A DNA stretch of 64,000 nucleotides from Candidatus Omnitrophota bacterium (lineage in GTDB: Bacteria > Omnitrophota > Omnitrophia > Omnitrophales > Aquincolibacteriaceae). Below the pieces are notes generated by a model. The model did not search any database. It was not told the DNA's origin and saw only the letters and a program-made list of their open reading frames with translations. Where the stretch lies: positions 12,962 through 76,961 of the forward strand of contig JAUYMS010000017.1 in NCBI GenBank assembly GCA_030698625.1, in the 5' to 3' direction. The translations under genes were made by a program, and so were the position numbers. This document shows, one piece after another, positions 26,901 through 50,253 of this stretch; the first letter of the stretch is position 1; each line of letters begins with the position of its first letter.

Positions 26901-29900
26901 TTACGGTGAAACATACGGAATATTTGCTATTCAGTAATTACATTAGAGATGTCATGGAGCTCTTCGAAGGGGAATTCGCTGCTTGGCACTGGATGCTCAT
27001 TTCGGATTTTCAGTCGCCCACCGGCATGAGTGTTGGGTTTAATGTGCAGGGGGCTTTGCTTTCCCCGAAAGCCGTTGATATGAACTCGCTGTCGAAACCC
27101 GGCGCGTTTTTGCCTTTGGTGAGCACTAAGAAAACAAAACAGGCGATGGCGGCGGGAAAGAAACGCGATCCGAACGAACCGCTTCCGCACGGTGCCGAAT
27201 GGCGCTTTGAGCGGGTGCGTGAGCCGGCTGACAGCCGAAAATATCTGCGGTTGGCCGAAAAGGCGCAGCGCTTGAGCCGTGTTTATTCGGCCGATGCGTC
27301 TTCGACCGTCGCTTTCTACTTCATTTCGCGAAGCCTCCGGGAGTTTGAAGAAAGAGGCGAACAGGCCTGGGAGATTTTCGACCACACCGGCCGCACCGTC
27401 GGCTTGAGTGTTCTTTCAAAGCCGAGATCCGATACATTGTCTGCCGAGCTTCGGAGTCTCATCGCCGCAGGCGGGGAGCTTGCCGAGCGGGAAACCGCGA
27501 TTATTCCCGAGTATCAGCGCCGCGGCATCGGGGCAGGTATCGGTATTGAGACCTTGCGCTACCTGCAGGACCATGCCGATGAAGGCATACGTTTTCTTCA
27601 TTCCAGGATTGATTACGGCCATGAGTCGTCTTTTCGCTTTCTGCACCGGGCGGCCCAGGAACTGGGACTGCCGATCCGCCTTGTGCCGGGCCCCGCAGGG
27701 GAAACCGGGGCACATCATCTGCTGGTTGATTTGTATCCGACAGAAGACCGCAGCGATGAAATTAAGACGATCATTAAGGAGTTTGCGGGACTGTCAGCGA
27801 ACATCGACAAGGCGTGGGAACAGTTGCAGAAACTGGAACAGACCGAACGGTCCGAATTAAGAGCCACGCCTATACATGACGAGCGCCTCGGGGAGCGCGC
27901 CTACATCAAAGAGTCCCAGACGGCCCGCTTGCAGGGCAGTGACCGGTTTCCGGCCGGCTATCGATCCCTTTTTATCGGCAACGGTTCCGATCCCTATCCT
28001 GTCGAAGAGGCCCGCTTGGGTGCGGTGAGTGACGCTATCGATACCCGCTATGGCGACGAAATAATGGCAGGCACCGAGAAAGTTTTCCGCGAGGCAGCCG
28101 ATCGCTTTAGTATTCCGATGGTAGGGGAGCAACCTGTTCTCAGATTCCTCCGCGGCGACATCAACGACCGGACAGAGAGTGAGACTCAGGCGCAAACGAT
28201 CGCCAGGCTTCTCGGCCTTCCGTCGGCAGAAGATGCCCTTGACCATATTTCGGTTCTGGATTTCTTTATCGATCCGGGCGATGCCGGTCCCACCGGGTCC
28301 TTTGATTTTCTGCTTCGCAACGCGATGCAGGCACAATTGCTACAGCGCGGAGTTCAGGGAATTGTGGAAGACAGTGTGCGCGCGGAGCCTGCTATCAACC
28401 TTTTCAAGGCACTCCTGGAACTCGTAAAGCCCGGAGGGACGATCGAGTTCAGCGAGGAGCCCCTCGTCCCGGAAGGCCGGTTGCCGGTCACGGCCTTCAG
28501 CGTCTTCGAGACCCTGCTGAAAGACTCTGGTTATCAGGAAGGCCGCGATTACCGGCGCGAGATCGTCGGCACAACCAACATCGAACACAATGGCATCGCC
28601 CTATATACCATTCTCAATAAACCCGAGCTCGGTCCGGCACAGATTGACGTGCAATTCGCCGGGCGAATCGAGAGATGGGGAGCTGAGAGAGGGTCCGATG
28701 AAGATATGGCATCGGCTATCCACGACTTTTTCCTTGGCGGCAGCGAAGACACCCTGGCAGTGGCCGAGCAATTGTTTGGCGAGGCGATACGAATGCGCGA
28801 TATCGAAAAAATCGAAGCCCGTCACTTTGCCCATGACCCCGTTCTCCATATGTTCGATGCGAAGATGACTCTCAAAGACGGAAACAGCCGGGATTTCTCT
28901 CTGATCCTGCCGGTCGAAGTGGGGGATGAGGAGTCCGATTTTGTTCGCGGTTTCAGGAATGTAGAAGAAATGCAGCGGCGCGGTTTTACAAACACAATCA
29001 AGCTGCTGCGGCTAGGCCGCGGGCAGATCGCTGCGCGGCACCCGCAGATGAATGGTAAGCCGCTGGCGATTGCTGCCGTGGAAGATCTCGGGGGCTTTGC
29101 AATCCTCCAGCCCCGCTACTATGCGCGGGCAGATTTTAGCGTACGGGGCCTGGACAATAGTAACCGGGTTCTCAGAGAAGTGAAAGTATTCGAAGAACCC
29201 CTTCCGGTGCAACACGCCATTCTGAGTGAAGTGGGAAAGTATATGACCCTCCTGACCGGGCATGAACCCGATTCGGATGAGATCAGCTATGTGTCGGTCA
29301 ATTTCGGGCTCCGTGATGTGCTCACCCGAATTTATCGCGGCCACGACTTTGATATCAAGACGCTCTTAGTACGCGGCATCGCGGATAATCGTAAGCCTGA
29401 GAATTTCCTGGATTATTTGATGGGCGGTAGGTTCGTCTTGCTCGATGGCCGCGCGCTCTTTCCTGTGGAGCCCCTGCTAAGGGGTATCGCCATGGGGCTT
29501 ATCGAGAAATTCGGCAAACAGGATGGCAGCCGCTACTTCAAAGACTGGATGCAGCGCTACAGAGAAGTTCTTAGCAACCGCGCCGAAGCATTGCGTGCCT
29601 GGCAGTCCAAGCTATACGATGGGGGAGCGAACCCCAGAGATTTTCTGGACGCGGATCTGGTGAGCTGGCTCGAAATGCAAATAGAGGATGCCAAAAAGGA
29701 CGAAGACCTAGCGGTTTTCTATCCGTGGGGCACGGAAAAATTCGAAACCTATCTTGAAACCGGCAAACGTGATTCCGACGGAACGATCGTTAAATTTCCG
29801 GCTGCGATCCTCAAGGTCACAGAGCGCGTCCTCGCGGCCGTGGAGGCCCTGCCGAAAACGCAAAGTGAAATACAAGCATTTGCCGCGGAAAGACCCGAGA

Positions 29901-32900
29901 TTCGCTTTGCCGGACCGGTCGATCAGTTGCCCGAACGATCCGAGCTTAGAGCCGACGATCCGTGGCATGAGACGCAGCTTGCTTATCTTATGCAGCAATC
30001 CGATGAAGCCTACCGCGACGCAAAAATTGGGGAGCTTGTTGAGGCCGGCCAGTTCACTCGGAGTACTCGTGATGCGACCGTTCCCGCAGCCTCCCGTGTG
30101 TTGGAGCAGCAAAAAAGCGAGACAGCGCCTATTGGTTACTTCAGTAGCCTGCTTCGCCTTGCCGGCGGCGACGAGGTCGGTGCATCATTTGAAGCGCGCT
30201 TCGGAACCGAAGGTTCTGTGACCGTCGATGAGGTCTTTCATTACTTCTTGGAACAGATCGATACAATCACCCATGAAGACGGCACCTCAATCGTTAACGA
30301 CTCTCTGCTCGACACCAACGAGAGCAAGAAGAGATTGTTGAACGAAATCTATCCGGTAATCCTGTTCAGTTTTGCCGGAATTACGCGGAAGCATGTCACA
30401 ATTCCGTATATTTTTCACCTGCTCGGTGTTGCCCTGCTGACGGTTCAGACCCTTGCGGAGAGCAACATTACCCACACCCAGCCCCGGAACGAAAGAGAAG
30501 CGTGGGTCATGGATATGCTCATCGCCTCGCTTTACCATGACCTCATTGAAGATACTGCCTTCTCCCCGTTCAACCTCGAGAAGTTCACATCGCGGAAGGC
30601 GCGGTTGCGCATTGAAGCGCTGACGAAACTGGATGTCCTCGAGAATATAGAGGGTATTCCGGCAGAACCCCTGGCGAAGCTCAAGAAACGAATTGAGAAG
30701 ATCAATTATACGGAGCTTAAAAAAGGCCCTAAAACGCTGGTGATCAAATTCGCCGACCGCATGTACAACCTGGCCGACGCGTTTGTGACCGCAAACTTTC
30801 TTCGCGGTACTGACGAGGCTGTGTTCGCGACGGCGGAGGCATTTCGAATCAAGTACGTGACCCAAACTACGGGAGAAGACGGTTTCCTTGCAAATCTTGT
30901 TTATGGGGAGAATCTCCCGACCGGCGAACCGTGGTTCATCGATGTGGCCAATTTTTTTGTCGCGCGTATTAATGAAATTACCGGAGAGAGTAACCCGCAA
31001 TTGGCGCGGGAATCGGAGGCGGCACAGGCGGGGGAATGGATCGATCTGCTGGATCGTGATTATGAGCGTGCCCGTCAGACGCTCATGAGTATGGAAGCCG
31101 ATGAGCGGGACAGAGTTCGTCTCGACGCGATCGAAGCGCTCAGGAATGAAATTGCCAGGATGCATCGAGGCACGATACACCTGGAGCCCGTTACGGCATT
31201 GACTCAGGACCTGAAGGGCGACTATACGGTTCGGCGCCTTACTTCATTGAGGGAAGACCTCGTTGTGAAGGACTTTGACCATGCGGAAACCCCGGGCTAT
31301 GAAGGAGATTATCTTCGGGAATCCCGGCATATCAGTCAACTCGTAGCGCGCCGCGGTACGGAAGAATATCTGATGCGGCTCAAGCTCTTCTGGCTTCAAA
31401 CGCTCCCCGAAGATTTTTCGATCGTGCATGTGGCCAGCGGCGTCAATTATATACCCTCTTACCTCTTTCCCTACACCGCAGTGACTTTGATGACGGTCAA
31501 TGCCAGTGCAGCGAACTTTATCATGTCTTCTGTTACGGGCATTGATGACAGTGCCTGGAACCTCAATCTGATAAAGAATCTCGATTACAGCGACGGCATA
31601 GACGCTCTTGATATTCCGAAGTTGAGGGGTGCGATCGACTCAAGCCCGCAGGCGAAACCGTCGCAGCGCGTTTTCTTTTTTAGCAACTTCGAACCCTGGG
31701 CCCGAAACTCCTGGACCTTTTTCGAAAATCAACGCACCCGTTACCGGACGAAGGAACCGCCGGCCGACCTTGCGGAAACCTGGGCGCGTGAAGCCGACGA
31801 AGGCCTCATTCGAGAGGGCGATACCCTGATTTTTTCAGGCGACGGTGACAGCGCTATCATGGAGGCACTTATCGCGCGAGGGTTTGTGGAGTTGCGCTAC
31901 CCTGCGGGCGTCCAAGAGAGCCTATTGGCAGCCGACGCCGGAGATTACAGCGTCAACTATATTGACGACCAGTATATCGAATGGGCCCGGACATTTCGCG
32001 TTTTGCAGAAACCTTACAGCGATGCGGCTGCAACTGAGACCGATCCTATCTCGAGTGCGCAATGGGTGAAATCCGATCGCTCCGAGCTGCGGGAAGATAC
32101 AGCGGTAGATACGGCAGTCAAAGTGGGGGCGGTGGTCGTTGGAACCGCCGCGGCGGGCACTGCGGGTTACTACCTATTAAGGAAGAAAGGCGACGGCTCA
32201 GGTAAGCCGGAGCCGATTCGGGTTGAGGCGCGCCAGGTCGGCCGGCGCGAATTCATGCAGACAAGTACTGCGGTCATGGCCTCGATGTCGCCGGCGGCGA
32301 AATTGTTTCTCGGCCAAGCGGCGGCTGAAACCGCGGTCGAAACAGTCGCCGGCACATTTAACGCGCAGACGGAAATGATGTTTGCCATTGCGCGGGCGAT
32401 CAACGGGATCGCGCGGGTCGAAGACGGAAGCTCCTCCGGCGCTCCGCTCGTAACTGATATCCTGCCTTGGCATCTGGAAAATAATCCCGACCTTATGCCC
32501 GACCAGGTCGAGGCCTTGAGAGAGAAAATTCTCGTCGCGCAAGATCACGTCAGCAAAAGTGTTTCGAAGCAGATATTCGCGCGGGCGTCCCGAATCCAAT
32601 TACCCGAGGGTATTTCGAATAGTACCGAATTGGATGAGTTCGTCAGGAAGTTTTTGTTGCCGCTCACCCGCACGTTGGGTAATGAGGTCGGCACGATCGT
32701 CAAAGGCCTCAAGACACGCGCCTTTGCGCAGATGGCGCTCCGGAAAGCAGCAGAGACGGCAAAACCGGCAGGGCTCAAAGATTATAATGCTGAGAAAGCA
32801 GCGAAAGCCGAACAGGGACAGCAGTACGCTGACTACGCCAAAGACGAGGCTGCGCGGATTTTCCGTATCGAGACGGCGCTCGAAGATAAGCGCCGGCGAT

Positions 32901-35900
32901 TTTCGGCCGAGTATGACCGCCTGCAGGCAGAACTCAAAATCGTACGTGACGAAGCAGCAGAGCCGCTAATCGGTAGTGACCTCGGCGGTGATCAGGATAA
33001 GCACTATGCCCGCTCTCTTTTGCCGATCCTGGCGGCCGAGGCCAAGGCACTGGCCGCAAAACTCGGGGAATTGAGAACTCTTATCGGGATCAGCCGCAAG
33101 CGCCAGAAGGCAGAAATGTGGTACGACACGGAGTTGGGCAATCTTGCGAATTCGTTCGGCCGGAAGATCGATACTTACCTACAAGGCTTCCGCAGAAGCG
33201 GCGAGGCCGATCCCAAACCGGCACTTCAAATCATTACCGATTTCCTGCGTGAGATCGGACGCGAGGACTTGTTATCCACCCTCGAACTTTACCAATACGA
33301 CAATCCGCAAATCAAGGACAATAAAATGTGGGCCGTGATTGTCGACGGCCATCAGACGTTGGCGTTTCTTCAACTCAGCGGTACCTACCACGTATCCCTA
33401 TTGAATGACCCCGTTTACTACGGCAAGACGACCGAAAAGGGTTTTGAGGCGCGCGGTAACGGAGCCCAGCGGGGTGCGCGGCTCTTCCTGCGGTATTTTG
33501 CACCGCGCTCTCTGTATCCTGAAGAGACGCAAGGCGACGTTTCCGTTGTGAAATTGCCAGACGGCCGTACGATCGAGATCCTCCGCGATCCCCAGCTGCT
33601 GGGCCGCTACCTCAGTCTGACCGTCAAAGACGCAGACGGCAACGAAATCAGCCATAGCGTGGAAACGCTCCATACGGTTGTTGAGCTCGGAGCGCCGGAG
33701 CCAAGGACAAAGTATGAATTTACACGTCGGGACGGCAAGTATGTCCTTCTTCCCGCACGTTCCGAGTTGCGCAGCCAGGGCGCGTTTACGTTTTATGAAA
33801 AAGACGAGCCGATCCTGCATGTGCAGATTAACGTGAGCCCGGGTGGCGACTCAGCCGATTTTAATCTGGCGGCGATCGAATCCGCGCTCTTAGGTCTCAT
33901 GAAGACCAAGAGGGCACTGATCAAGTCGGCGGACCCTAAACCGGAACTTCTGTGGCAGATCAGCAAGGCGGGCCCGAACCTCGCGATCGGTGACGAGAAT
34001 AGAACGATTTACCCCATTGCGGTTGAAGGCGCCCGGCCTTCCCTGCTGCTTAAGATTAAAGATCCCGGAAACGCGAGTAACATTATTGCCACGGCTTATA
34101 TCCATGAAGTCTCGGGCGAAATCGTGAGCGATTCCTTTGCGAAAGAACGCGAAATTGCCCGGGAGGCGGTTGCCAGACTAGACCGCAGGACTAAAAAAAT
34201 AGAACGGGTCCTAATTGTCGATGACGAAAGCAACCGGCGCGCCGTGGTTCGCCGCGTGCTTCGCGATGCCAATAAATCAAGCGAAGAGACCGAATACGGT
34301 GAAGCCGAAAACGGCCGCGATGCCGTGAACGTATTTCGTCATAGCACTTATGACCTGGTGATTACGGATATGGATATGCCGAATGGTAACGGCGACGAGT
34401 TCATCCGGGAGATCCGCCGCACGGCCGGCCCCAAGGTGCCGGTCATTCTCTTGAGCGGCTCACAGTGGGCGCATGAGCAGGTCCGCAAAAAACTCGGCCC
34501 CAACGCGATCAGCCTGGCCAAAAAAGGCTCGGGCTACAACGCCAACCTTGTCCTGCAGTTCGTGATCGAAGAACTTCAAAATCAGGTGCGGCGCTCCGAG
34601 CTGCGCCTCAGTATCGGGGAGATCGAGCAATTTCTCAAAACGAAGCAAGAGGGGCTGATCGCCGGTTATGCGCAACATTTTGTCGACGATATCGCGAGCC
34701 TTTCAGACGAGGATATTCAACAGGGGATCCGGGACTTCTCTTTGGATGAGGAAGTCTATGGCCGGCCGGCGCTTGATGCGGAGCAGTTAGAAGACCGCAC
34801 TCCCGAAGGCCGGTACGCCATTGTGACGGAAGCCCTTTTCCGTTATCTCAGGGCACATCAGGGGCGCGTGGCAAACTATGCGATTGAGTTGGCGCGAATG
34901 GTTTCTGACAAATTCCCCGATGAATTTAATTACAACGATGAAGAAGCCCGGAAGTTATTCAGGGTCTCTGTCCTGGCGCACGATATCGGCAAGGTCAAAG
35001 TCAAACCCTCAATCCTTCTCTTTAGTAAGGGGCTATTGAAAGGCGACGATTTGGAAACGATGCGCTCTCATGCCGCGCTCGGGGCGGATATCGCCCGTGA
35101 TTACCTGAATGAGATAGGCGTGGATCCGGAGGTTCGTGATTCGGTTGTGAATGTCGTCAATTTCCATCACGAGGATTGGAACGGAGAGGGTTATCCGCAG
35201 CGCCTCAAGGGAAAGGACATTCCCTTTTTGGCACGGCTCGTCCGTATTGTCGACACCATGGAAGCGATGCGCCCTCTCATTCCGCGCTTCCACTCCTATA
35301 AGAGTTCCACGGTTGCTCAAGTGATGGGGCTGCTTGAAACAGGCAAAGAAAAGTATTTTGACCCAAGCTTGGTCGACATTCTCTTAGACGGCATCCGCGA
35401 GGATAAGGCCACGGCGCGGCGATTCGCGGGGTTGCTTCTCACGGATTTAGAGACGCTCGATGACGCGCTGGGCATCGAACGCTCCGAACTGCGGAGTTCA
35501 ACAGAAACCGCGGATGATGATTTTGAACAGCAGCTGGCGGACGTTGCCGAAATCGTTCAAAACTTAGTCCGAGGCACGGGAGAAGCCTCAAAGTCAGCCG
35601 TGTCTATCGTCATGAGCCTTGCCGAGAGCGGCTATTTCCATCCGCACCAATCGTGGCTCCAACGTAGACGTCCGTTACAGGGTAGTCAATTGGAAGCGCA
35701 GCGCCGCCGTATAAAGCTCTCCTTTACCGATGCGCCTTACCCGGGCCATACCCCGGAAAATGCTTTTTTTAGCCTGACGATCACGGGAATCCCGAACAAT
35801 GAAAGGCTGCGCAACCTCGCCGCGGCCCTTAAGGAAGCTCATATTGTTTCTGCGACCTCCTCGTTGGATCTGCTGGTCATTTTAGAGGCCCTTGTAAAAC

Positions 35901-38900
35901 AATTGCCCTCAAGTAATTTTGACGCAGAAAAGCTGCAGCAATTGGCGGCTCGCGTACAGGCGGTGAACGAGGAGTCGGGTACGTTGGGATTGTCTCAGGT
36001 ATTGCTTGCATTACGCGAGCTCACGAAGAACCACTTTTTCCATCGCAGGGGATTTAACGATGTCATGCGGGCGATAGACGTTTTGGAGAGTATTGCTGCG
36101 GACGAGCGGCGGGAGCAATTATTCAGTCTATTCTATTATCTCAACAAGGAAGAATTCTTTCTTGAAAGGGGATGGTCGCTCGCCCGAATTTCCCGAGGAC
36201 TCGTGCTGATTGTGTCAAAAATCCCTGTTGTGAATTTTATCCTTGGCCTTTTCCTGCAGTGGTTGTGGATGAGAGCAGAGTGGCTCGTCAGTTTCTTTCT
36301 TGCAGAGAAGCAAAGTGTGTCGAGACTCGAGTGGGCCGGTCTTGCGGCATCGTCGGAAGACCTGCAAGAAATTACTTCTGCGTGGGCGAAACTCTCGCTT
36401 TCTGTAGAAAACAGGGGAATATCGCGCAGATTCTATCTGAATGCCCATTTGTTAAGGCAATTGGGCCCGAAAGGGGCTCGCGCGGCTCTCCCGTCGTGGA
36501 TGAGCAGGTTGGAGGTTTGGGAGAAAGATCACGCAAGGGAATTTTTATCTGAGGCGTTTCTGAGCGGCCCTGTAGATCAACCGGATGCCGCATCCCCGCA
36601 GCCTTCAAGTAGTCGTGCCTTGAGCACAATGATTAACACCAGGCTGTCCGATAGTTTTCTGAACCTGGGTCCCGGGATGCCTGGCGATAGAAAAATCGGT
36701 GTCTATTACGGCTATCTGCTTAACCATATTCTCGCCCAATCGATCGTAGATACGGATAAGGACCCTGCGCACTTAAAGCAGATGGCTTTTGAACTTGCCG
36801 CGCTTCTCATCGCGGATAAGAAGGTCATGCCATGGGTTGTCATTGCGGTGCTGGATGAATTGGAGCTGTTTGAGGCTAAGCAGGAGATTGTAACGGTTGT
36901 CGGCACCGCGGCGGCGATTGCGGCCCATCATGGTGCCGATTTCAAAGAGGAGCTGTATTCAAAATTTCTGACGCACAGCATTCCGAGAATTGCGTTGGAA
37001 TCGCCCGAATTACCCATGGAGTTCAGCGCGCTTCAGCGGGCGGTGGCGGGAATCCTGGGTTTTTATCAGGATGAGCGTTACGCGTTGGATCTGATCAAAG
37101 TGACGGGCCGCTATCTCAGTGATGAAGGCCGTCCCGATGTGATCGCAGATCGCATAGCGGAATTGGACGCAGTGGAGTCGATCCATTTCGAGACGCCGCG
37201 GATTCGAAAACAGGTCATTGACAAACTTGCACGTGTGCACACCCGGGCCCAGGGCAGTCGCTTTTTTGTCAGCGATGAAGTGCAGCAGCGGCGGCAAGAA
37301 GTCCTCGAAAACCTGAGGGCTGAGAAACAGCCCGCGCGTATTGTGACTGCCGGGCTGCTGGCAGAGTTTGAAGAATATATAAGCACGGTTGCCTCTGAGG
37401 ATGAGATCGGTCTTGTGAAGTCGCTAAATCGATACGGGCACTTGCTGCATAGGAACAGGAGAGGGGCCGTACCATTTGGGGCCTTGGGTGTGCTAGGGAC
37501 GCCGGGGTCGCGTTGGCACGACGAGTTCCCGGCCGTGAAGCTGACAAATACGAGTCTCGACGAAGTCGATATCTATGAAGGTTACGATGGCCCGAACTGG
37601 CTTATGGGCGAGGGTTTCAGCAGTCGAGCGGCGTACCGCGCGGTGCAGGAAAAAATCCGTGATGCGGTCAACGCCGGCCGTATTGACTATGCGAATGCTG
37701 CTGCCGTCATGAACGCTCAAGCAAAGCGAATCGAACGCTCCGAACTGCGGCTTCCCGGTGAAAAAGTAGCGGTCATCGGCGGGGCCGGATTTGTGGGTGC
37801 CACCGAGGCGTCCATGCTTTCGGCTCGCTTTGGCCATGATGTCACGGGCGTCGACATCAAAGACGAAAGCGTGAAGTCGCTCAATGGCGGCACATTGGTC
37901 AATTATGCCCCCGGCCTCGAAGAAATTCTCCAGGAGGGATTGAACACGAATCGCCTGCGGTTCACAACACATTTGGAACAGGCGATCAAGGATCGCGAGT
38001 TTATTTTTCTTGCCTTGCCCACACCCTATAAGGAAGACACCGGGGAGGCGGATATAAGTTTTCTCGAGAACGCCGTGCGGGACATTGTCCGCCTTGCGGA
38101 ACCCGGAAAGAGGAAAATCATCATCGGTAAAAGTACGGCCCCTCCTGCCACGGCGAAACGTCTGAAGGAAATTATTGCCGAAGAACTCCCCGAGGGAGCA
38201 GAAGTGCACCTGGCATGGATCCCCGAATTCCTGCGCGAGGGCATGGAAGTCGAAGACGCGTTGGGCGGATCGGGCCGTATGGTGATCGGTGCCGACAGCC
38301 CGGAGATCGCGGAGCGCGTCGCGTCTCTTTATGCGCCGGAGAGAATCAATCCTAAGTACCCGACTCGAAACCCGAATCGACCGGGCGAGCCCATCCCCAT
38401 TGTCAAAATGGGGATTGAAAGCGCCATGCTGGTCAAATACGCCGCGAACGGTTTCCGCGCCACCAAGATTTCCTTTATTAATCTTATCAGTTGGTTTACC
38501 GAAGAGCTCGGTTTCAAAATTGGCGACATCTCGGCAGCGATTGGCGAAGATCCGCGAATTTTGAAACCCTTTTTACAGGCCGGGTGCGGTTGGGGCGGAT
38601 CGTGCTTCCCGAAGGATTCTTTATCCTTTCTGCGCCAAGTCGTAGATGCCGGAATCCCTTACGGATTGATGCTCGATACCTTTGCCGTGAACGAAATCCA
38701 GTGGAGGACCTTTGTCCACCGGATCGATGAGCAGTTAAGCGGCGTAAAAGACAAGACCGTTGTCATCTTGGGAGGTTCCTTCAAACCGGGAACGAGTGAC
38801 GTAAGGGAAGCCCGCTCGATCCTGATTATCAAAGAGTTGTTGAGTCGGGGTGCCCGCGTGCGGGTCTTTGATCCCGTTGCCATTCCCTTTTTGAAGAAGG

Positions 38901-41900
38901 AGTTTCCGGGCGAGGCGGGCATCGAATATTTTGAGGTTTCCGAGGACGGCCTCGAAGCAGCTGATTACGAAAGCATGAAGGGTGCGGATGCCGTCGCGCT
39001 GGTGACCGCATGGGAGACTTTTAAATCCTTGGATTTTGAACACCTCAGAGATGTGACTTTTTCCGGCAGAGCCCTTCCGACGATCTTTGACGGCTTCAAC
39101 GGTTGGAATCCCGAAACCCTGGGGGGTCTCGGTTTTAGTTATACGGGGATCAGCCATAATAAATTTGATAGTGACCTGGTCGGAGAAGCAACCGTCGATA
39201 ACCAGGAGGAGTTTGTGGAGCTTACCAAACAACTCTTTCTCGCCCTTCGAGTCTCGTACACCAATATGCTTGCAGAGATGGCCGAAGCCGCGGGTGCCGA
39301 TATTCGCGAGGTCCTGACGGGAATCGGCTTTGATCCGGTTATCGGTCCCGAGCATCTGAAGCCCGGTCTCGGCTTTGGCGGTTTACACCTTTCCCGTGCC
39401 TTGGAGCGTTTTGAGAGCATGGCGGTGGCACTCAATTTCCGCGCATTCTATTCCGCAGAATACGTCACACGCAGACATCAGATTCAGGACCATTTTGGTT
39501 TTGGAAAGAACGGAATGGGGGATAGCCCGGACCGCATTCCTTTTGTATCCGCGATTCGTGAGGAAAATGAAAGGTCCATCAGGCTACATGTGGATATGAT
39601 ACGAGAGGCAGCGGGGGGTGACTTGACGGGAAAAAAAATCGCGGTTTTGGGGTTGGCATATAAGCCCGGTACCAACGTCATTGACAACGCGCCTTCTGTG
39701 AAATTGATAAATACGCTGCTTGAAGCAGGCGCAATTATTCAGGCGACCGATGAGGATGAGCAGGTCATAGCGAAGATCAAACAGGAGTTCCGTCAGGTTG
39801 AGTCCGGGCGACTTCAGTTTTTCGCGGATGCCCGCGATGCAGTACAAAAGAGTCAGGTTCAGGTTTTGGTGACCGAATGGCCAAGATATCGGGATTGGAA
39901 TGATTTTGTCTTCGAAGCAGCTCAAGTTAATTTTGTCGACGGCCGTCATTTTTACGATCCCGCGGAGTTCAAGAACAGCGGTATTAATTACTATGCCATA
40001 GGTGTTCCCCGCGGCGACCGTGATCGCTCCGAGTTACGTTCAGAAGAAGGTCTGGCGTCCACGGTGTTTAAGATGCTCGAGTCATTCGACAAACCTTTTA
40101 AAGACAACCGGAAGGCCATTACGGATTATATCCGGCCGCTCGGTCGGGAACAGAAGATCGAAGCTTTCAATCTGCTTGTCGATGTTCTCGTGGATGCGAC
40201 GGCCAAGGGGCGGGCGCGCGAACTGGCGGGCCGTGTCCTTCCTAAAGTGATCGAAGATCTCGGCCGGGACGACAAGGTCGACAATGTGGCCGTCATTCTC
40301 CCCGCGCTGCGCAAGGTGATTGCAACGATTGATCAAATCGTGAAAGGCATGCGGCCGAAGACGCGCGAAGAAGGGATTTTCGTTTGGTATGCGATGGACT
40401 TTGTCGAAACCGTTGAAGACTATGCGAGCGGCAAGAATATTCAGCATGTCGTAGACAAGGCGCTGGGGAACAAGCTCAAGAACATCGAAGGCGAACTCGG
40501 CACCATTTTCTGGATCCGTGAAGTAGACAGCCCCTGGTGGAGATTCGAGGGCCAGACCGAAGACCTTGGTTATCTGCATATTTCCGCGCGTCATCATGCC
40601 AAAGAGCTCAAGCGTGTCGCAAAGCGGATCAAACGGCCGGCTGAAGATACAGAAGAACGTGAGACGCCGGAGGAGTTGTGGGCGCGTGCGGTTCGGGCCT
40701 ATGAAGGCATGGGTCTTCTGCGGCAGCAGGCCCTGATCCTGTGGCAGCTGGAAAGCCGCGACATGACCGCAGAGAATCCGCATCAATACGAGATCGAAGA
40801 CAAGATTCATGAGATCGCACGGCTTGCCGCGGAATCTCGGCCCGTCTTTGAAGGCATCACTGCAGATCTAAGAAAAACTTACACAAAGCCCTGGCCGAAG
40901 CGCGACCCAAAGAAAAAGACTCTGTTCCCCGGACTCTCAGCTCTTCCTTCTGAGCAGGTAGCACTCGAAGCGGATGAGCGCATGATCGAGAAGCCGAATG
41001 GCATGAAGCAGGAGCTTGCGAATCAGATCTTTGGGCTCTTCGCCAAAATGAAACGGCATTCGAAAGAGATTGCGCGTTGGGGCGCGATTACTACGGGCAT
41101 CATCAATAAGATTCAGGAAGGCTCCAGCGAAGATCAGGGCGTTGCGATCAAGGAGCTCAGAGAAATCATTCGCGAGCGGGCCTATCCGGAACTCGAAGAA
41201 CTTTCACGGCTTTCGGCGGAGATCATGATGACAATCGGATGGCTCGGGACGACCACTGAAGAAGATCACGCCGCCGAGATTAATGCAGCGCAGGACCTGG
41301 GCCGACAGATTCGAGAAGCCCTGCGATCGGATCCGGATGACGATGGAAAGGACACCGAAGTAAGAGAATATCTCAACTCCGAAGAGTTCCGGGAGATGGA
41401 GCCCAATGACCGCCTGGGAGCCGTTATCGATCAACTCAGGAACAATGGCCTCAATCTCGACGGTGAAAACATGAACGACATCTACAATAAACTGCCCCTG
41501 CAGCTTGGCGACTATGTCAGCCGGGACGACATTACGACCTATGACATGGAAGCTTCCATATATAGAAAGATCCGCGAAGCTGTTGCCGACCCGCAGATTC
41601 AGCGGTTCCTTCTCGCGGAAGATTTCATGAAGCTGGATCCGCTGGAAAGGCTTCCCGCGCTCATTGCCGAAATTCGCCAGGCTCGGCTGCCGCTTGACGC
41701 CGAAAACGTCATGCAGATCCGGCAGGCCCTGCCGCGCGTGCTGGCAGACCATACCGAGGTCACAAGACCTATTAGTGACGACGGCGAACTGGGTGAAGAA
41801 TACGAAAAACGGACTCAGATCTTCAAGCAGGATATTCCGGCCCTCGACCTGCCTTTCAATGTCTTTGTGCAGATGCGGGATCTGGTCGAGATGAGTGAAG

Positions 41901-44900
41901 TTCAATCGTATCTGGATTCTCCGGAATTCCGTGCTGTTCCCGCCGAACGGAAGCTCGCCACATTTGTCGCAAAACTTCAGGACGGAGAGACGGGCATGAA
42001 TTTCATTCTGGAAACCGATGACTTGGAACTTATCCACCGTGCTCTTCCCGAAGATCTCAGTAACAAGACGAAAAAGACGGAGATGCCGTTACCGGTCGCC
42101 GAAGACGCCGAGGCGGAAACCGCCGGCTATCTCGGCTGGGTGCGGCCGTTTCTCGATTTCTTACGCAAATTGTTCCGGGCGGCGGTCGAGTACTTTCCGA
42201 ACCGGATTCAGTTGGGCCGCGACCGCAAGGCCGTGGAACAGGCAACGCGTGTTGCTTTTGAAACACGGGCCATTCACGAAGAGTCCCGCAAATACTATCT
42301 GGATATATTCGAAGAAATCGAGAAGCTTCGCAAAGCGACCGGTCGCAACACCTTTCCGATCGCCGCAGAAGACACTTATGGGCTTAGCCCCGAACCCGCA
42401 TCACCGCCTGCAGTTGACCCTTCCGGTACAGGCCGCTCCGAGCTGCGCAGTGATTTTGAGGTTGCGAGGGCGGCTACGCAAGATCAATTGAAGGAATTGT
42501 TGGGGCAGCACTTTGCGATCGAGGTCCTTGACGATGCGCTGACCGATCGCTTGTCGCCCGACATCTTTACTTTCTGGTATGCCCTTATTAAAGCGGCGCA
42601 CCTCGACAAATCCGCGCTCAGGAGAGTGATTTTTACCCTGTGGGACCGGGCCCATGAAAAGACCCTGGTGTATGAGGGGAAGGAGATTGAGTTAACGGAA
42701 ACCGACAAGCTTCTTTACCATAGCCAAGGCGGTTATCATAAGGATACGAGTTCCGTCATCGTAAATACCTCGGGTACGATGCCCCTTGCGATGATTGTCG
42801 CGCACGAGATCGGCGAAGCGATTGTTAAGGTTTACGGATTCCGCTATTACCTACCCGAATCGCAGCATGAATACCTGGTTCATTATGTCCTCAAAAGTCT
42901 TCTCAAAGAGGTGGATCCGAAATATATCCAGGAATATGACGATGCAACGTCGGGCTCTTTAGGTAAGGTCGGATACGACGTGAGCAGGAGTAGAGTCAGC
43001 ATGATCGAATCCGTAGGGAATGCGATTCTGAAAAACGCGAAATTTGCGAAGGCGAAAAAGAGAGCAGGCTTTTTGCCCGAGCTCGAACGATTCGAAGAGG
43101 ATGTCCCGTGGAGTGCGTTACGCGATAAGGATCCCGCCGCGAGATCCAAAACATATTTCAAGGAGGGCGACCGGGTCGTCATTGACGTAAGGGGACGGGA
43201 GGGGCCGTATATCGGGAGTGGTGTTCTTGCCGTGAAAGGAGTAATAAGCAGTGTGAACCGTGACGGACAGAGTGTCTACGTCAACCTCGTCACCGACAGC
43301 GGTGAAATTCAAAACTCGGTATTCGGAACAAATATTGGCGACGCCAAATTGTGGAAATGGGATGAGGGAAAGGAACCGTTTGTGCCCGAGGGCGGAGAAT
43401 TACGGAAGGAGGAGTATACTTCCGTCTTAGAGCTTCCCGCCGCCATCGCGAAGGCACTCTGGGATGATGCCAGTTTTCTCACCGTCGGTGAGCTGAGAAA
43501 TGCCCTTGGGATGGGCTTGCTGCATCTTATCCCGGGCATTGATTATGAAGCGATTCGCACAATCAGAGAGAAACTTGCGAGTGTCCGCTCCGAGCTGAGG
43601 GCTGAATACGACGCCTACATTGTTTCCGGTGCGGAGAGGGCCTTAAGGCCGGCCGGTGAAGTCAGTCGCAAGGGCGCGAACCTGTTGACGATGGCGTCAC
43701 TCGGTCTTCCGGTTCCTGATTTTGTTATTGTGACGACGGACCTCGCCAAAGACCGGGGCGGCAATATCGACTTTGATGAATTGGCTGCGGCATTGACCGC
43801 CCAATTCGAAGGAAAGCTTGGCGAGGATTACCGCCTGCGTGTCAGACCCGCGGCGATTGAGACTATGCCAGGGGTTCTGGATACTTATGCCGGTATTGCA
43901 TCGGGCACAGATCTCGCGGAAGCGCTTCGTCGGGCCTACGCACAGTGGGAGGACCCTTTTACCTCGGCTTATCGAGACGAATTTGGCATTCCGCATGATT
44001 CGGGAATCGCGATTACTGTGCAGGTCGAAATCAATGTGAGCGGAACTCCGAAAAGTGCTGCAGGTGCTTTTCATACGCGTGACCCGAAAAGCGGAGAAGA
44101 CCGGCTGACGGGAACTTATTATATCGGAGCGCCCGGGGAAAAGACGATGTCGGGGTCTGAAGACCCGGCCTTCCGGACCGTCGAAGACCATTTGCAGACT
44201 GACTTTCCGGATCTTCATACGAAACTTGTCGAAATCAAAGGCATTCTCGAAAAGCATTACGGGTACCCGCAGATCGTGGAGTTCATTATTGAAGACGGCA
44301 AGATTCATCTTCTGCAGACCGATCATATGGACCTGGATGAGGCCGGCATCGGCGAACGCGTCATGGACGACATGTTCCGCCAGAAGCTTACGAGCATCAA
44401 GCGTATCACGGCTGCCCGCAAGGCCCGTGAAGCGCTCAAGGTAGCGATTAGGGCGGTCCGCGAAGACGCCAAAAAGGAAACAGTGCCGGGCTTCGCGCTT
44501 TCGCGCGGAGCTGCTGTGGGAGTCCTGGCTTTCTCACTTGAGGCGGCCGAGCGTTACCGGGCGGACGGCAAGCAGGTAATCTTGCTTGTGCCGGAGCGTA
44601 ACCGCGCAGTGTGGACGGCGATGATACAAAAGAAACTTGACGGTCTTCTGCTCCTTTTCGGTAATTACAATATGCATGAAGCCCGCATTGCACGGCGCAT
44701 CGCCCTGCCCGCGGTTTCCAGTCTGGAAGACCGGGAATTCGACGGCGCATCCTTTCGGGTTGGCAATATCTCGTTAAAGGAAGGCGACCGCATTGCCATT
44801 GACGGAAACACGGGCAAAATCGTGCTGCCCCAGGGCCGGCATGTGCTCGAGACCGTTGCGGAGACTGCGGTTGAGACGGCCTCGGAAGTGGATCCCGAAG

Positions 44901-47900
44901 AAGTCGCTCAGAAGACGCGCGAGGCGTTTGGCGCCCTCTCGTATCAGCAGCTTGTGGTTCTGCATTCGGTACTCGCGGCCAATGTCTCCTATGAAGACCT
45001 GACACACAGCGGGGCTGCCGACGATGCCATTGCCCTCGAGACTGCCCTCGATGAGATTCATATCCTGGTGACGAAGGCCGGCACCGTGCTTGGGCGTACG
45101 GAACTGGAAATTGGGCGCGAACTTCAGACGGTTCGGAACACCTACTGGCAGCATGTGGAGGCGCGTGAGATTCCTGAAGCGATTCGTTTCACTACCCAAG
45201 ATGAACTCATCGCTAACGGGATCGCCAAAACGGGGTTAATTCTTGCCCCTGTGCGCGGACTCAGGATCGAAAGCATCGACAAGCTCAAAGGGTTTGGCAA
45301 AGACCTCGTATTGCGGAGTGCCGATCTGAATCTGCCGATCGAATTTACAGCTACGCTTGCCGGCGACCTGACGGCATTGGAAGCAACGCCGGACCTCTTG
45401 GCCATCGGCATGGCAATTGAGATAGAAGCCGAATACATCAACCTCATCGGTGAAGAGGCTATCGCCTCGTTCTTTTTTGAAAAGGAAAAAGTGAAAAAGA
45501 CGCAACTCGTCAACGTGACGGTAACTGTCGAGGATGCAGCATCGGGAAGGGTCAAGATTCGTGGTGAGTTCCCCTTCGAACAATACATGCCGGTGTTTAC
45601 TGCTCAGATCCGGATTCTAACGGCAGCAGGTGATAAATGGTACTCAGAGTGGCGGGATGACGACCGCGGCGATCTGGTCGGAATTCACTGGGAGAAGCCT
45701 TCGACGGTACGCAGGGAGCGCATCGAACAATTGATTCGCGCAAAAGAATTTAAGGCAGCCTCGGCGGACAGCGATCGGCTGAAGCAGGAGCGCGCCTACG
45801 AACTTGTGCGCGAAGCCCTGAATAACACCACGTTCAGCTATGGCATGGGCAGCGGCTACAGCAACCGGTTGGACGGAATCCTTGAGGAACTCGGCGAGGA
45901 GGGGCATCGCTGGCGCCTCAATTATCAGTTTCTCGGAAACTATGCCAGTGAAGTGACGATCGCTTCGGAGGTGCAGAAGCCTTCGAGAATGCACTTCGAC
46001 GATAGCGAAGCCTATGCGCAGATGCTCAATGAGATGTTCGGCGCCGAACTGAAAACCAGAGCGGGGTCCTGGTCGGAAAACTCGAAACGGGCCGGGGACC
46101 CCATCCACGCCTGGTCATACCATTACATGAACGTTCTGCCGGTCGATGATGCGATTGCGAAACGCCTGGCCGAGGGGCTCGTGGAACTGCAGGATACGAT
46201 CGATGTTCTAGGCCTCACCCGGTATCAAGATAAAGACGCACTGAATTACCTTGATGCCGAGGCCCTTGTCATTGCCCTTTATCTCAAACATCAGGGCCGC
46301 CTGCAACCTCACCGCTCCGAACTTCGAAGCGAACAAGAAGATTTAACGGAACAGGATCTCTCCGCTCTCCTAAGGCCATGGATTGTCCATTTTGATCCCG
46401 ATGCCGGCTATACGGCTTTTACGCGAAACAAAGACGGAAAAATCTATGAAATCGTTCTGTGGGTCAGCACTCCCAAAGACGAGGCAGGCAAGCGTCATCG
46501 CTACCTAAGAACACCGATACATATTATCCAGGGCTTGTACCCTCAGTACAAACTCGACGGCGATATACAAACAGATAAGGTTTCGGTCGGAGGCGGGAAG
46601 CGCAGATTTTATGTGTCGCTGAAGTTTGAAGAGGAGGAGAAAGCCGCGGAGGCGGATGAGTGGGCCCTTGATCTGCAAATCAATGACCGTCCCTTTCGCA
46701 GAAAAAAACCGGCCGCCGTCTGGAAGCTGGAGTTTTGGACCCAACCGTTAGTTGTGGTCCTCGCCGTCGCAGGGTTCCTCATTATGCCGGTACTCATTGT
46801 TCTGTCCTTCTTCGGCACACGACCTTCAGAGGAAGGGGAAAACGCGAAAAGCCGGCGCGATACATCAGGCGGCACAATTACAGTCCCGGGTTCAGCGGTA
46901 CCCGCTGAACCTGAGGCCAAGCTGAAGCCGCCCGCCGCGCCCGCCCGTCAACTCGTGAATCTTTATCCGTCGAAGGAGAACGAGATTGCCAATCTCAGGT
47001 TGCCGGTAAAATATGAAAATAACAGCGTGGTGCTTACGCAGGGAACCGGGTTTGTGGAATGGCGGACGCCTTTGTCGGGTGCGGATATTCATCCCGACAG
47101 CGGGTACAAATACATGACTATTTTCATCGATGCCGACGTTCCCTACGGACTTTTTCTGGAGTTAAAAAATAGTACGGCCGAGCGTCTGGCCGGCCATGAC
47201 CCATTGGATCCTTCAGGGCTCGTAAAGCTTTATATCGGGGGTGACGAAACAGCTCGCGCGCAAGGTTATGTCACGATCCGGCTTCAAGGCAAGCATGTCG
47301 CCAATTTAACGGACTATTTTGTCTCGGCAATTGCCGTATCTGACGTCATGGTGGGTGAAGGCAAGTCAGTTACGATACGCGGCTACCGCTTTCACGATAC
47401 TCCTTCGCCTAACACTGCCGCCGACAGCCGTGGCCGCTCGGAACTTAGGACGGTTTCGGCGAGGCCGGCCTTGAGCACGGAACGCGTCGATCAGGTTGCG
47501 CAGGTGGCTCTTGCGCGTGATCTCCTGTTTGGTATTTTGGCCGTTCGCGTCGCTGCGGAACTGGCAGCGAACATCTATAAGAAGCTGCTCATCGAAATGA
47601 ATGTCTTGGAGCCGGAAGTTGTGTCTGTGCTCAGCGACGATCTGCGGAAGGCGCTCAGCATTCCGGTCGATCCGCGCGAACGTAATGGATTTGGTGTTTC
47701 TGTCGTGCAGGCCGATCAATTCGATGCGGTCGGTTACTATGCCGCCGATATTCTGCTGCGTGAATATCCGAACAAACTTCAGATTGTGATCACCTCAATG
47801 ACGGAGGCCGAAATCGACAGGTTGGAAGGCAGTCTTAAAGAACCGCTTACGGGCCGCCTCTTTCTGGTGCCGGCAAGCGAGGATTATTCTACGACCCTGC

Positions 47901-48319: not shown

Positions 48320-48510
48320 GCGATAGCAATTTATAACAGGGCCCAGTTTATTATCACTTGCTGTCATCCCCCCTATTCTATTAGGCCAGGGCATAATTCC
48401 ACTAAGTCGTTGGGTTGAAAACGGTTAGTTCATGTGCGAACCTTTCTCGATCTTCACATCAAACCAAAATTCCGTCTTACAACGTCAAAGGACTGGGGGG
48501 TTTTTCGACG
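48320..48510 (+). promoter_or_regulatory. Intergenic region between giant genes 2 and 3 (no terminator hairpin seen; SD-like AAAGGACTGGGGGG at 48487-48500)
   Basis: Moderately AT-rich 190 bp. It shares an AAGGA(A)CTGGG element with the region upstream of gene 2. Confidence 0.3.
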
Positions 48511-50253
48511 GTGCAGAAGGACTATAGTTATTTCCAGAGAGTGGTTGCGCTCGTCACGGCGCTTGTCTTCTTTACGACAAGCGTGGTCGAGTGGAGCTAT
48601 GCCTCTGCGGCCCCTACTCCCGAGACCCATCTTCAATTCATTTCCGAGCTCGGCATCCCTGCCGATATTGCGACTGTCCGCGATAGCTTCGGTGACTTCT
48701 CCGAAAAGGGGGATCATGTCTTCGTCATCGAAGACGCGCATACCAACTATGATGCCCAGACCAATACCAAAGCCCTTTTAGAATACCTGCAGACGAAACT
48801 CAATATTCACCACGCCTATGTTGAGGGCGCAGCAGCACCGCTTGCACCTGAGCGCATCCGCTTTTACGAAGACGAGGCCACCAATGTGCGGCTCGCCGGG
48901 GAATTGGCAAAAAAAGGCGAAGTCACGGGCATTGAACTTTTTCTGCTTGAGCATGGAAATCATTTCCAGGCTAACGGTGTTGAAGACCTCGGCATGTACG
49001 CCGAAAACCTGGCACTTTACCGCCGTGTCCTTGGGGCAAAGGCCGAATCCGTAGAGCTTTTGAAAATCCTGCGATCGCAAACGGAGCGCATCATCAGCCG
49101 TCTTTTTGGCGCCCGGCTGCGCGAGATCGTCAGGCAGTGGATGGCCTTTCGTGAGCAGCGCATGGATCTCGACCAGTGGATACCCGAGCTCGAACGCGCG
49201 GCGCGGGATTTAGTGCATGTTGATTTTGAAGATCCTATGGCACAGCTCAAGTGGCCGCAGCTGGTCCGGCTCTATCGGCTGAAGCAATTGGAGCAGGATA
49301 TTGACACGGAGAAAATGGAGCAGGAACTCATCCGCGTCGAGGTCTTGATGAAAGCCGCCGGTCAGGAAGGGCTTGCGCAGGAATTTAGACAGCTGCTGAC
49401 CGTCGAGGGCGAACCGGAGTTACGCTTACGGCGTGCCATGGAAGATCTTTACCGGCGCATGCAACCCCTGGGATTTTCTTTCAACGCCTACCCCGCGCTC
49501 CGGAATTTTACCGCGGTCACTATTTTCCGCCGAGAGATGAACGCCCTCGAGATGATGACGGAACTGGAACGGCTCGTCGATACTCTCATGGAAACACTTG
49601 CCGTAACGGATGCTGAAAAGGAATTCCTGCCGTTCATCAAACGTCTTTACCTTCTCGAGAACGCCCTCACACTGACGCTTACGCGTGAGCAGTGGGATCA
49701 GCTGGGTGACGAAGTCCGTCCCGAGGCCCTGCTCGACGAATTGTCTCGGCACAGCAGAAACCTGGCCATCGAGGGACTTGATGAAGAATCCTTGAACAAA
49801 CGGTATGCACGCGTCTTTAATCTGACGGAGTCGGTCAAACGTTTCTATGAGACGGCGCGCGCGCGTGAAAGAGTTCTGGTTAAAAACACCCTTGCCGGGA
49901 TGAAAAGCGAGGGGATTAACAACGCAGTCATGATTGCCGGGGGGTTTCACACCGACGGCATTGCCGCGCTTCTTCGCGAGGCCGGAGTGTCGCACCTCGT
50001 CCTCAGCCCGAATATTCGCAATATCAAGGATGATGAGCAGGACTACTACTGCATGATGACGGGGCGCTGTGATACGGCGGTGCCCGTGCTGCATACCGGA
50101 TTAAATAGTGCGGCGATTCATCGCGAATCGGCCGGCCTGCGGGCTTACCGCTATCGACTTAGGCGCATCGTGGAGACCATAGTGGGATTAGGAATCGGCT
50201 CGCTTGAAGACGACCGGGAACGCGTTTTGCGCTCTTTCGGACTCCTGGCCGAC
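48511..50253 (+). other. Shared N-terminal module (copy 3)
   Basis: VFVIEDAHT (48714-48743), GIELFLLEH, WPQLVRLYRL (about 49250), IAGGFHTDGI (about 49927-49965). Ends at RSELR 50254-50268. Confidence 0.6.

Follow-up and report, generated by a model that had tools for sequence, protein, structure and literature searches.

Giant open reading frames of an Omnitrophota bacterium carry a recurrent RSExR motif between modules and may encode leader-cargo polyproteins

Introduction

Giant open reading frames (ORFs) are a hallmark of the Omnitrophota, and the fate of their products after translation is an openly stated question. Giant multi-enzyme proteins of this phylum are known from several studies (Seymour et al., 2023, PMC10066038; West-Roberts et al., 2023, bioRxiv 10.1101/2023.11.21.568195; Nielsen and Lui, 2026, bioRxiv 10.64898/2026.06.07.730766). 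West-Roberts et al. suspected cleavage but lacked the cleavage points, so that the giants could not be split for structure prediction, and a 2024 survey of huge proteins named missing protease motifs as the obstacle. The preprint of Nielsen and Lui contains no word starting with cleav-, motif, proteol- or junction. The same question is raised by the stretch of DNA analyzed here, a window of 64,000 nucleotides (nt) from contig JAUYMS010000017.1 of a Candidatus Omnitrophota bacterium (GCA_030698625.1), which holds three giant ORFs, here called A, B and C, with a five-residue peptide, RSELR, recurring between their modules. An initial annotation of this sequence had proposed that the modules were once, or still become, separate proteins whose termini map onto the RSELR sites. 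Our analysis leads us to the view, to which we assign a probability of roughly 0.6, that the three ORFs encode leader-cargo polyproteins which are processed at R-S-E-x-R (RSExR), with a cut that follows the last Arg and is possibly made by the leader domain itself.

Results

A peptide motif recurs in frame throughout three giant ORFs

The window contains 31 exact copies of RSELR (13 in ORF A, 13 in B and 5 in C) and one RSEPR, while about 0.04 copies of RSELR would be expected by chance from the amino-acid composition. All RSELR copies lie in frame with the three giant plus-strand ORFs and none was found in the other frames; the coordinates and sequences quoted in the initial annotation all proved exact. 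Synonymous differences between the copies occur at all five codons (CGN/AGR, TCN/AGT, GAA/GAG, CTN/TTR), and since every codon varies in this way, selection must act on the peptide and not on a nucleotide motif. A motif at the RNA or DNA level was ruled out by the same codon variation.

The peptide is not confined to this genome. Related loci and database proteins are here denoted by L and P numbers, respectively. In the leader-bearing ORFs of the window and 80 related loci, RSE.R was found 297 times (4.9 expected), and 143 further leader proteins contained 514 copies of RSE.R (8 expected) and 170 of RAE.R (11 expected). In its general form, R-[S/A]-E-x-R, the motif is found in thousands of proteins of the Omnitrophota. 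Outside the five residues there is no conservation apart from a preference at position +1, where T, S, A and E are favored and P, C, W, Y, F and R are strongly depleted.

RSExR sites bound the units of homology

The position of the motif relative to recognizable domains was evaluated with 96 sites and 17 enzyme units from the window and five related polyproteins, using 20,000 random placements; Pfam recognized just 1-3 domains in each of six further polyproteins, and the test is therefore based on these 17 units. None of the 96 sites fell inside an enzyme unit (13.2 expected; zero was never reached in the random placements), six units started within 25 amino acids (aa) after a site (1.04 expected, P = 3e-4) and six ended within 25 aa before one (1.03 expected, P = 3e-4). 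If RSELR had nothing to do with the termini of the modules, it should occur inside homologous cores as often as at their edges; this check thus came out on the side of the edges.

A similar picture emerged from alignments between polyproteins. This test was restricted to cargo, as leader-to-leader alignments confound it. Only 26 of 126 cargo-to-cargo alignments spanned a site, compared with 66.5 expected and a minimum of 50 in 300 randomizations, and at 25 of 32 spanned sites the partner polyprotein carried a site at the aligned place. RSExR sites thus bound the units of homology, and the motif is kept at aligned junctions although the flanks diverge to 30-45% identity. Around 702 sites, disorder propensity was increased and hydropathy decreased, the change reaching about 30 aa to the upstream side and no more than about 10 aa to the downstream side, which describes an asymmetric linker.

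Enzyme modules and native N termini

At the focal junction (37736-37750) RSELR is followed by LPGE-KVAVIGGAGFVG, with KVAVIGGAGFVG beginning at nt 37763. This was read at the outset as the Rossmann motif of a UDP-glucose dehydrogenase (Ugd), starting five residues after RSELR and hence close to a native N terminus, and the comparison with homologues bears this out. When 107 free-standing homologues of 400-480 aa were aligned to the window module, their residue 1 mapped to a median of +1 after RSELR (mode +1; 0 to +4 in 87 of 107), and position 3 of the TuaD profile (NCBIfam) coincided with the fifth residue past the motif. The module matches PF03721, PF00984 and PF03720, the N-terminal, central and C-terminal domains, at 127-144 bits (E 6e-42 to 5e-37), and TIGR03026 at 407 bits (cut-off 189.8); with 394.6 against 700 for TuaD, the equivalog level is not reached. 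In L038 a site lies 22 aa upstream of Ugd. Downstream of the complete Ugd, module B09 contains a second, partial copy with the central and C-terminal domains (B5751-5916, window 39236-39733). As pure speculation, a Ugd module starting with L-P-G-E after a cut could be an N-terminal trimming substrate for the product of the M24 peptidase gene that lies between ORFs A and B.

Other enzymes fill their modules with varying precision. The FabD-like LLLPGGGS at nt 25160 does lie 15 residues past RSEPR (25100), as initially noted, and position 1 of TIGR00128 extrapolates to +11; this RSEPR is regarded as a genuine junction because the aligned place in L077 reads RSELR. A hexokinase (L066) has its extrapolated start at +2 after one site and its end 5 aa before the next, and two 2-hydroxyacid dehydrogenases start at +17 (L049) and +21 (L070). 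HAD motif I (ALDVDGTLL, nt 6073) is found 20 residues past the RSELR at 5998, as had been stated, and the module carries about 12-15 residues more than a typical HAD N terminus. The extrapolated HAD start lies at +18 with the Cof model and at about +14 with PRK01158, its end lies 14 aa before the next junction, and the module, with 291 aa, is roughly as long as an entire HAD enzyme plus a short additional stretch at the N terminus.

Hence the proposal that module termini map onto RSELR holds insofar as the sites stand between enzymes and never inside them, but not every junction corresponds to a native N terminus. In the window, REC starts at +138, a SpoT-type HD domain at +149 and AAA_5 at +79 into their modules, and a NosR-family model covers a REC/HD-GYP pair as one protein, with the RSELR at B4203 falling in its linker. 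REC and HD-GYP normally form one RpfG/NosR-type response regulator, and a cut at 34592 would uncouple the receiver from the phosphodiesterase.

Three junctions had been listed as RSELR-M (3745) or RSELR-AM (12007 and 12535) and taken for retained ancestral start codons. The three readings are correct and a fourth, RSELR-VM at 55969, can be added, giving four Met residues at +1 or +2 in the window compared with 1.3 expected. However, the idea of retained start codons is weak and not general, since Met was not enriched at 768 sites outside the window (22 vs. 15.1 expected at +1, P = 0.054; 16 vs. 15.1 at +2). A preserved N terminus is suggested by the junction at 12007 alone (M-SRRGFLE), which resembles a signal of the twin-arginine translocation (Tat) type. 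A search of a 5.8-billion-protein database for homologues of modules A13 and A14, which follow the two RSELR-AM junctions, gave no match.

The N-terminal leader domain

Each of the three giants starts with a leader module comprising a domain of about 500 aa, in which a helical insertion of about 300 aa separates two core halves. When A01 was modeled with AlphaFold2 on the basis of 13 sequences, the model reached a mean pLDDT of 79 and a pTM of 0.71, with the last 58 residues, including the first RSELR, being disordered. In this model the core adopts the predicted alpha/beta fold of the TIKI/TraB/EreA/ChaN superfamily. PF04187 (Tiki superfamily, ChaN) gives a match just below its cut-off to the stand-alone homologue P0009 with an E of 2.6e-5 (24.7 bits, cut-off 27.7) and P0010 with an E of 6.5e-3; a comparison of the leader profile with PDB sequences returned just coiled-coil noise.

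The leader family conserves HIQ[D/N]AH, EG, an R...N pair and TGGFH. In A01 the conserved residues are D85-x-H87, E115, R466 and H494, and D85-x-H87, E115 and H494 (in GGFH) are invariant or nearly so in the 13 sequences, with the motifs recurring in all classes; the first acid is D, N or E and not always E. The leader thus appears to keep a 2His/2acid catalytic set that matches the 2His/2Glu set of TIKI proteins in order and position (PMC6254334). This set is essential in the TIKI-family endopeptidase RRSP (E3900/H3902/E3930/H4030), and the corresponding pair in BcR135 is H85/E113 (PMC6254334); judged by the order and position of the motifs, the leader residues would correspond to both.

Distribution, dialects and the C-terminal tail

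The leader profile identified at least 434 loci in a genome collection, nearly all of them from Omnitrophota, and 9,885 cluster representatives in a protein library, with the leader at the N terminus in all family members listed. RSExR outside leader ORFs was at background level, save for 5'-truncated tails of upstream giants and one further ORF. The latter (L068, nt 16775 to end; 1,570 aa, two RSExR, no leader) probably continues a polyprotein that has been interrupted, given that the leader ORF directly preceding it ends without the -[SA]A tail described below; the interruption is probably a stop or a frameshift.

The fourth residue of the motif, x, is specific to the genome. Here 31 of the 32 sites carry L, across three leaders that share only 30-33% identity; S is found in 17 of 23 sites of one metagenome-assembled genome and L in 7 of 7 of another, while mixtures of A, V and M occur in other genomes. 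The share of the commonest x within genomes was 0.535, which was never reached in 2,000 shuffles (maximum 0.392). Moreover, a second junction motif, [GA]x-SLG, was found in 8 of 159 long leader proteins (L060, L024, L033, L034, L059, P0257, P0258 and P0262), where 4-13 copies begin at the leader end and follow each other with similar, module-like spacing. [GA]x-SLG and R[SA]ExR never occur in one protein, and the leaders of the SLG type are mutually nearest neighbors in 6 of 8 cases. The genome-specific x and the separate SLG dialect suggest that a recognition machinery may be tuned per genome.

The proteins also share a C terminus. Of the 153 leader-bearing database proteins P0001-P0010 and P0131-P0273, 105 end in -SA or -AA (53 and 52, respectively), compared with 1 of 120 control Ugd proteins, and in loci L008-L081 the same ending is seen in 23 of 35 related ORFs that reach a stop. 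The tail approximately follows the consensus A-x-x-[RKA]-[ILTV]-A-x-[SA]-A and is lacking from stand-alone short leaders; it could be a degradation or C-terminal-processing signal.

Membrane topology and Tat-like signals

The N-terminal hydrophobic segment of the leaders (window 445-540, 21986-22080 and 48520-48600) conforms to the positive-inside rule in all 116 family members examined, with a net charge of +3.6 before and -0.6 after it, and resembles a signal anchor in N-in orientation. From this topology, the leader and a large part of the cargo would be predicted on the outer side of the cytoplasmic membrane. Of 20 candidate Tat-like signals picked by a loose pattern (RRxFL plus a hydrophobic stretch), 4-5 lay no more than 12 aa from a junction, compared with 0.36 expected, among them RSELR-AM-SRRGFLERV of module A13.

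Cargo and genomic setting

The cargo comprises whole enzymes, signaling domains, membrane segments and many parts without assignment, with a median module length of 273 aa. Ugd, HAD, FabD, the hexokinase of L066, the 2-hydroxyacid dehydrogenase and a PLP enzyme each fill a motif-bounded module, and Pfam identifies HAD, PPDK_N, AAA_5, HEAT, REC and HD domains in the window giants. Most cargo had no detectable homologue by Pfam on the window giants, by comparison of ORF A with PDB and by the search with A13 and A14; whole ORF A gave no match to PDB sequences with phmmer. Some cargo modules are paralogous: A09 and A10 (window 8446-9786) share 34% identity and have two hydrophobic segments each, and C02, C05 and C06 (within window 50269-64000) have N-terminal regions in common. 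The homology of paralogous cargo begins 3-27 aa from the junction, that of A09 and A10 extending up to the motif. Single near-matches within ORF A (RSELG at 10978-10992, ESELR at 13219-13233 and RSYLR at 4744-4758) may be decayed junctions; RSELG lies about 90 aa upstream of a weak methyltransferase match.

ORFs A and B are separated by housekeeping genes, coding for an M24 peptidase, a Rieske protein, a split transketolase, a gamma-glutamyltranspeptidase (GGT), a NUDIX hydrolase, a Bax1-I protein and a MORN protein, from which we conclude that the window belongs to a cellular genome. The closest relatives of the giant proteins come nearly all from Omnitrophota metagenome-assembled genomes, and the gene order of the window is repeated on an independent Logan assembly contig (run SRR13727534). 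All features are listed in Table 1.

Table 1. Giant ORFs, leader and enzyme modules, C-terminal tails and junction motifs in the window.
Feature	Coordinates	Strand	Remarks
Giant ORF A	445-13536	+	4,363 aa; leader, then 13 RSELR-delimited cargo modules; tail ..ISSAA; same length as database protein P0131
Giant ORF B	21986-48319	+	8,777 aa; leader, 13 RSELR and 1 RSEPR; tail ..LAAAA
Giant ORF C	48406-64000	+	>5,198 aa, open at window end; leader and 5 RSELR so far
Leader module A01	445-2202	+	N-terminal hydrophobic anchor, predicted TIKI/TraB/EreA-fold domain with large helical insert, disordered tail to first RSELR
Leader module B01	21986-23980	+	A01 paralogue, 33% identity
Leader module C01	48406-50253	+	A01 paralogue, 30% identity
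RSELR	2203-2217	+	End of leader A01
RSELR	3745-3759	+	Next residue M
RSELR	4417-4431	+	
RSELR	5293-5307	+	
RSELR	5998-6012	+	Before HAD module A06 (6013-6885, 291 aa); Cof-type HAD match begins 19 aa later
RSELR	6871-6885	+	Extrapolated HAD end 14 aa upstream
RSELR	7912-7926	+	
RSELR	8431-8445	+	
RSELR	9073-9087	+	Separates paralogous modules A09 and A10
RSELR	9772-9786	+	
RSELR	10399-10413	+	
RSELR	12007-12021	+	Then A-M-SRRGFLERVMKTAVLASLSL; Tat-like N terminus of module A13
RSELR	12535-12549	+	Then AM
C-terminal tail of ORF A, ..EEISSAA	13513-13533	+	Family-wide -[SA]A ending
RSELR	23981-23995	+	End of leader B01; RSELR at aligned place in L077
RSEPR (fits RSExR)	25100-25114	+	RSELR at aligned place in L077; FabD position 1 extrapolates to +11
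FabD-like malonyl-CoA:ACP transacylase domain, B1056-1336	25151-25993	+	TIGR00128 E 1e-35; Pfam Acyl_transf_1
RSELR	27848-27862	+	
RSELR	29936-29950	+	
RSELR	32078-32092	+	
RSELR	33758-33772	+	
RSELR (B4203)	34592-34606	+	REC/HD-GYP linker; REC nt 34202-34456, HD-GYP nt 34808-35413; domain boundary, not typical protein N terminus
RSELR	35480-35494	+	22 aa past HD-GYP match
RSELR (B5251-5255), focal junction	37736-37750	+	Directly precedes Ugd module; conserved in L044
UDP-glucose/nucleotide-sugar dehydrogenase (Ugd), B5260-5724	37763-39157	+	Within module B09 (37751-40039); Pfam and NCBIfam
RSELR	40025-40039	+	
RSELR	42434-42448	+	
RSELR	43586-43600	+	Before PPDK-like module B12
RSELR	46313-46327	+	
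RSELR	47435-47449	+	
C-terminal tail of ORF B, ..QTLAAAA	48296-48316	+	Family-wide -[SA]A ending
RSELR	50254-50268	+	End of leader C01
RSELR	51958-51972	+	
RSELR	55969-55983	+	Then VM; VWA end extrapolated 12 aa upstream; AAA_5 module C04 downstream
RSELR	58984-58998	+	
RSELR	61228-61242	+	
Creatinase_N and Peptidase_M24 (Xaa-Pro aminopeptidase-type) gene	13760-14896	-	Between giants A and B

Discussion

The motif is under selection at the protein level, stands at module boundaries and co-occurs with the leader, and it is very probable that it functions as a peptide-level signal between modules. In the mechanism that we propose, each giant would consist of a hydrophobic anchor, a TIKI-like domain and a train of cargo, joined by polar linkers that carry R-S-E-x-R (x being Leu here) and closed by the -[S/A]-A end. 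RSExR would be the recognition site of a site-specific endopeptidase cutting after the last Arg, so that each downstream module would begin with a near-native N terminus and each upstream module would keep RSExR as a tag. That the motif is a cleavage site at all seems to us reasonably likely. The cut is placed after the last Arg because native N termini lie at offsets of +1 to +3, the residues that follow show a P1'-like pattern and the linker is asymmetric. A cut after Arg would resemble a tryptic cut in standard proteomics. The candidate enzyme would be the TIKI-like domain of the leader, acting in cis or in trans; it is the most economical choice because the leader is the sole constant partner of the motif and retains its catalytic set, yet the assignment of cleavage to the leader is tentative, and we would not bet on it at even odds. 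The suggestion that the modules still become separate proteins is plausible, and the Tat-like signals directly after junctions hint that their release may really occur. By extension, though with similar reservation, there might be a phylum-wide cellular polyprotein system, in which thousands of genes would each join a membrane-anchored TIKI-fold endopeptidase to a variable series of ordinary enzymes, membrane proteins and exported proteins, this cargo being released at genome-tuned R-[S/A]-E-x-R sites or, in some lineages, at [GA]x-SLG sites, and the -[SA]A tail serving as a further signal.

Several observations weigh against this interpretation. We infer the cleavage itself, the position of the scissile bond and the identity of the enzyme. 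TIKI-superfamily members include site-specific peptidases (Tiki, RRSP) and also esterases and haem binders, and a peptidase activity of the leader is therefore no more than plausible. The leader model retrieved nothing significant from PDB with Foldseek (best E 0.33), BcR135, EreC and HopBA1 appearing only at E 1-4, where the helical insert probably dominates the comparison; likewise, the link to PF04187 stays below the gathering score and concerns homologues only, the three leaders of the window having no Pfam match. Neither junction motif was found in 25 of the 159 long leader proteins, and the Ugd copies in L055 and L042 have no motif before them, their native N termini being fused without it. 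Furthermore, the predicted location outside the membrane poorly fits NAD- and ATP-dependent cargo as well as the Tat-like signals, a conflict that the preprint of Nielsen and Lui also ran into (bioRxiv 10.64898/2026.06.07.730766). As to these signals, A13 of the window shows the SRRGFLE-plus-hydrophobic pattern alone and was not matched by the Tat model TIGR01409; among sequences that immediately follow a junction, the highest score of this model was 14.5 bits (L041) with a cut-off of 16.7, and its match of 19 bits on L036 lies 179 aa away from a junction.

A protease other than the leader, for example a subtilase or a trypsin-like enzyme whose gene lies at another place in the genome, could cut RSExR, with the leader serving for instance as an anchor, as an esterase or in secretion, which we consider unlikely. 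The identical x next to leaders of 30-33% identity would be explained as readily by one trans-acting enzyme per genome, and the leader fold is without significant Foldseek support. Proteases are also found in the class, as C39 and S8 domains have been reported in Omnitrophota giants (West-Roberts et al., 10.1101/2023.11.21.568195) and L022 carries a Peptidase_S8 (subtilase) cargo at ORF aa 1348-1525, about 31 aa past a junction. However, Pfam and NCBIfam revealed no endopeptidase domain in the window giants, the nearby peptidases are only the M24 aminopeptidase-type gene and GGT, and it is the leader that forms the one invariant partner of the motif with its catalytic set kept.

Somewhat less likely again is that RSExR is not cut, being a conserved linker signature, for example for docking or recognition by a chaperone, kinase or secretion factor, or a hinge, in giants that stay intact as multi-enzyme scaffolds. 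Nielsen and Lui regard such proteins as intact membrane-anchored multi-enzyme clusters (bioRxiv 10.64898/2026.06.07.730766). The tolerance for RAExR, which makes the Ser hydroxyl non-essential, and the splitting of a REC/HD-GYP pair that normally acts as one protein would agree with this, and cleavage is so far inferred. By comparison, a mere linker would hardly explain why P and aromatic residues are scarce and small residues enriched at +1, a pattern typical of a scissile bond, or why the motif stands within 1-3 residues of native N termini and is directly followed by Tat-like signals, which need a free N terminus; in addition, two mutually exclusive dialects and a genome-specific x suggest co-tuning of an enzyme and its substrate.

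The formation of separate chains without proteolysis, through a nucleic-acid or translational signal (RNA processing, internal initiation or 2A-like stop-go), is very improbable: the Met at +1 or +2 after four window junctions could be taken for such a signal, but Met is not enriched after the 768 sites elsewhere, the five codons vary synonymously with no nucleotide motif conserved, and the flanks lack conservation of the kind that 2A peptides need. A neutral relic of gene fusion, chance or an assembly artefact can be practically dismissed, as the motif exceeds expectation about 60-fold in three independent sets and is retained at aligned junctions with diverged flanks, the gene order recurs in an independent assembly, and the family counts thousands of cluster representatives.

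Processing of leader-cargo polyproteins at RSExR thus remains our preferred interpretation. The junction motif provides a cutting rule: divided in silico at these sites, the giants yield pieces of about 270 aa that can be annotated and submitted to structure prediction. Together with the leader it also provides a biochemical hypothesis, in which both the substrate peptide and the candidate enzyme, down to its catalytic residues, are specified, and leader, motif and tail represent a genome marker for finding and counting the whole class. If the interpretation is true, many unrelated enzymes would be organized and co-expressed from one promoter and one mRNA as stoichiometric products, and bacteria would join viruses in expressing many unrelated enzymes per gene as a polyprotein.

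Compared with the Omnitrophota giants described earlier, the window ORFs belong to the same phylum, judged from their homologues, and are likewise very long, membrane-anchored and mostly unannotated, with scattered domain content. They lie at the small end of the class (4-9 kaa), and RSExR, the TIKI-like leader and the -[SA]A tail are absent from the descriptions in those papers. No paper in the literature searched describes RSExR or links Omnitrophota with polyproteins or with TIKI/TraB/PrgY domains, and within that literature neither the motif nor the leader assignment nor the tail has been described.

Within the TIKI/TraB/PrgY/GumN/ChaN/erythromycin-esterase superfamily, the leader shares [DE]xH, E and GxxH in the same order, and its homologues show the weak PF04187 match; it differs by the helical insertion of about 300 aa, by its N-terminal place in polyproteins and by a similarity below curated thresholds. 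Gingipain/adhesin polyproteins of Porphyromonas gingivalis are cut after Arg or Lys by a protease within the polyprotein (C25), and are similar in that a bacterial polyprotein is cut after a basic residue into catalytic and adhesin pieces by a built-in protease; they differ by the C25 family, few modules, the lack of a defined five-residue motif and an extracellular virulence context. In MARTX toxins, release depends on a cysteine protease domain, and the target of RRSP is host Ras and not the toxin. MARTX toxins resemble the window giants as giant modular bacterial proteins, the modules of MARTX being freed by autoprocessing (PMC6254334), but the junction motif is a different one, and Pfam found neither RTX repeats nor a C80 cysteine protease in any chunk of the three ORFs (E <= 0.01).

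A parallel in architecture is offered by polyproteins of viruses that encode their site-specific protease in cis, for example picornavirus 3C and potyvirus NIa. Common to both are many units per ORF, a short junction motif mostly on the P side and a candidate protease in the same chain. On the other hand, the present giants are encoded by a cellular genome, with metabolic and signaling cargo and many paralogous polyproteins per genome, their candidate protease would have a TIKI and not a chymotrypsin-like fold, and their cleavage is putative. To our knowledge, expression as a polyprotein has so far been known as a strategy of viruses and not of bacterial housekeeping metabolism. In kind, the system would be a polyprotein whose candidate protease is encoded in cis, similar to those of viruses and partly to MARTX toxins, placed in a new setting and equipped with a new candidate enzyme family.

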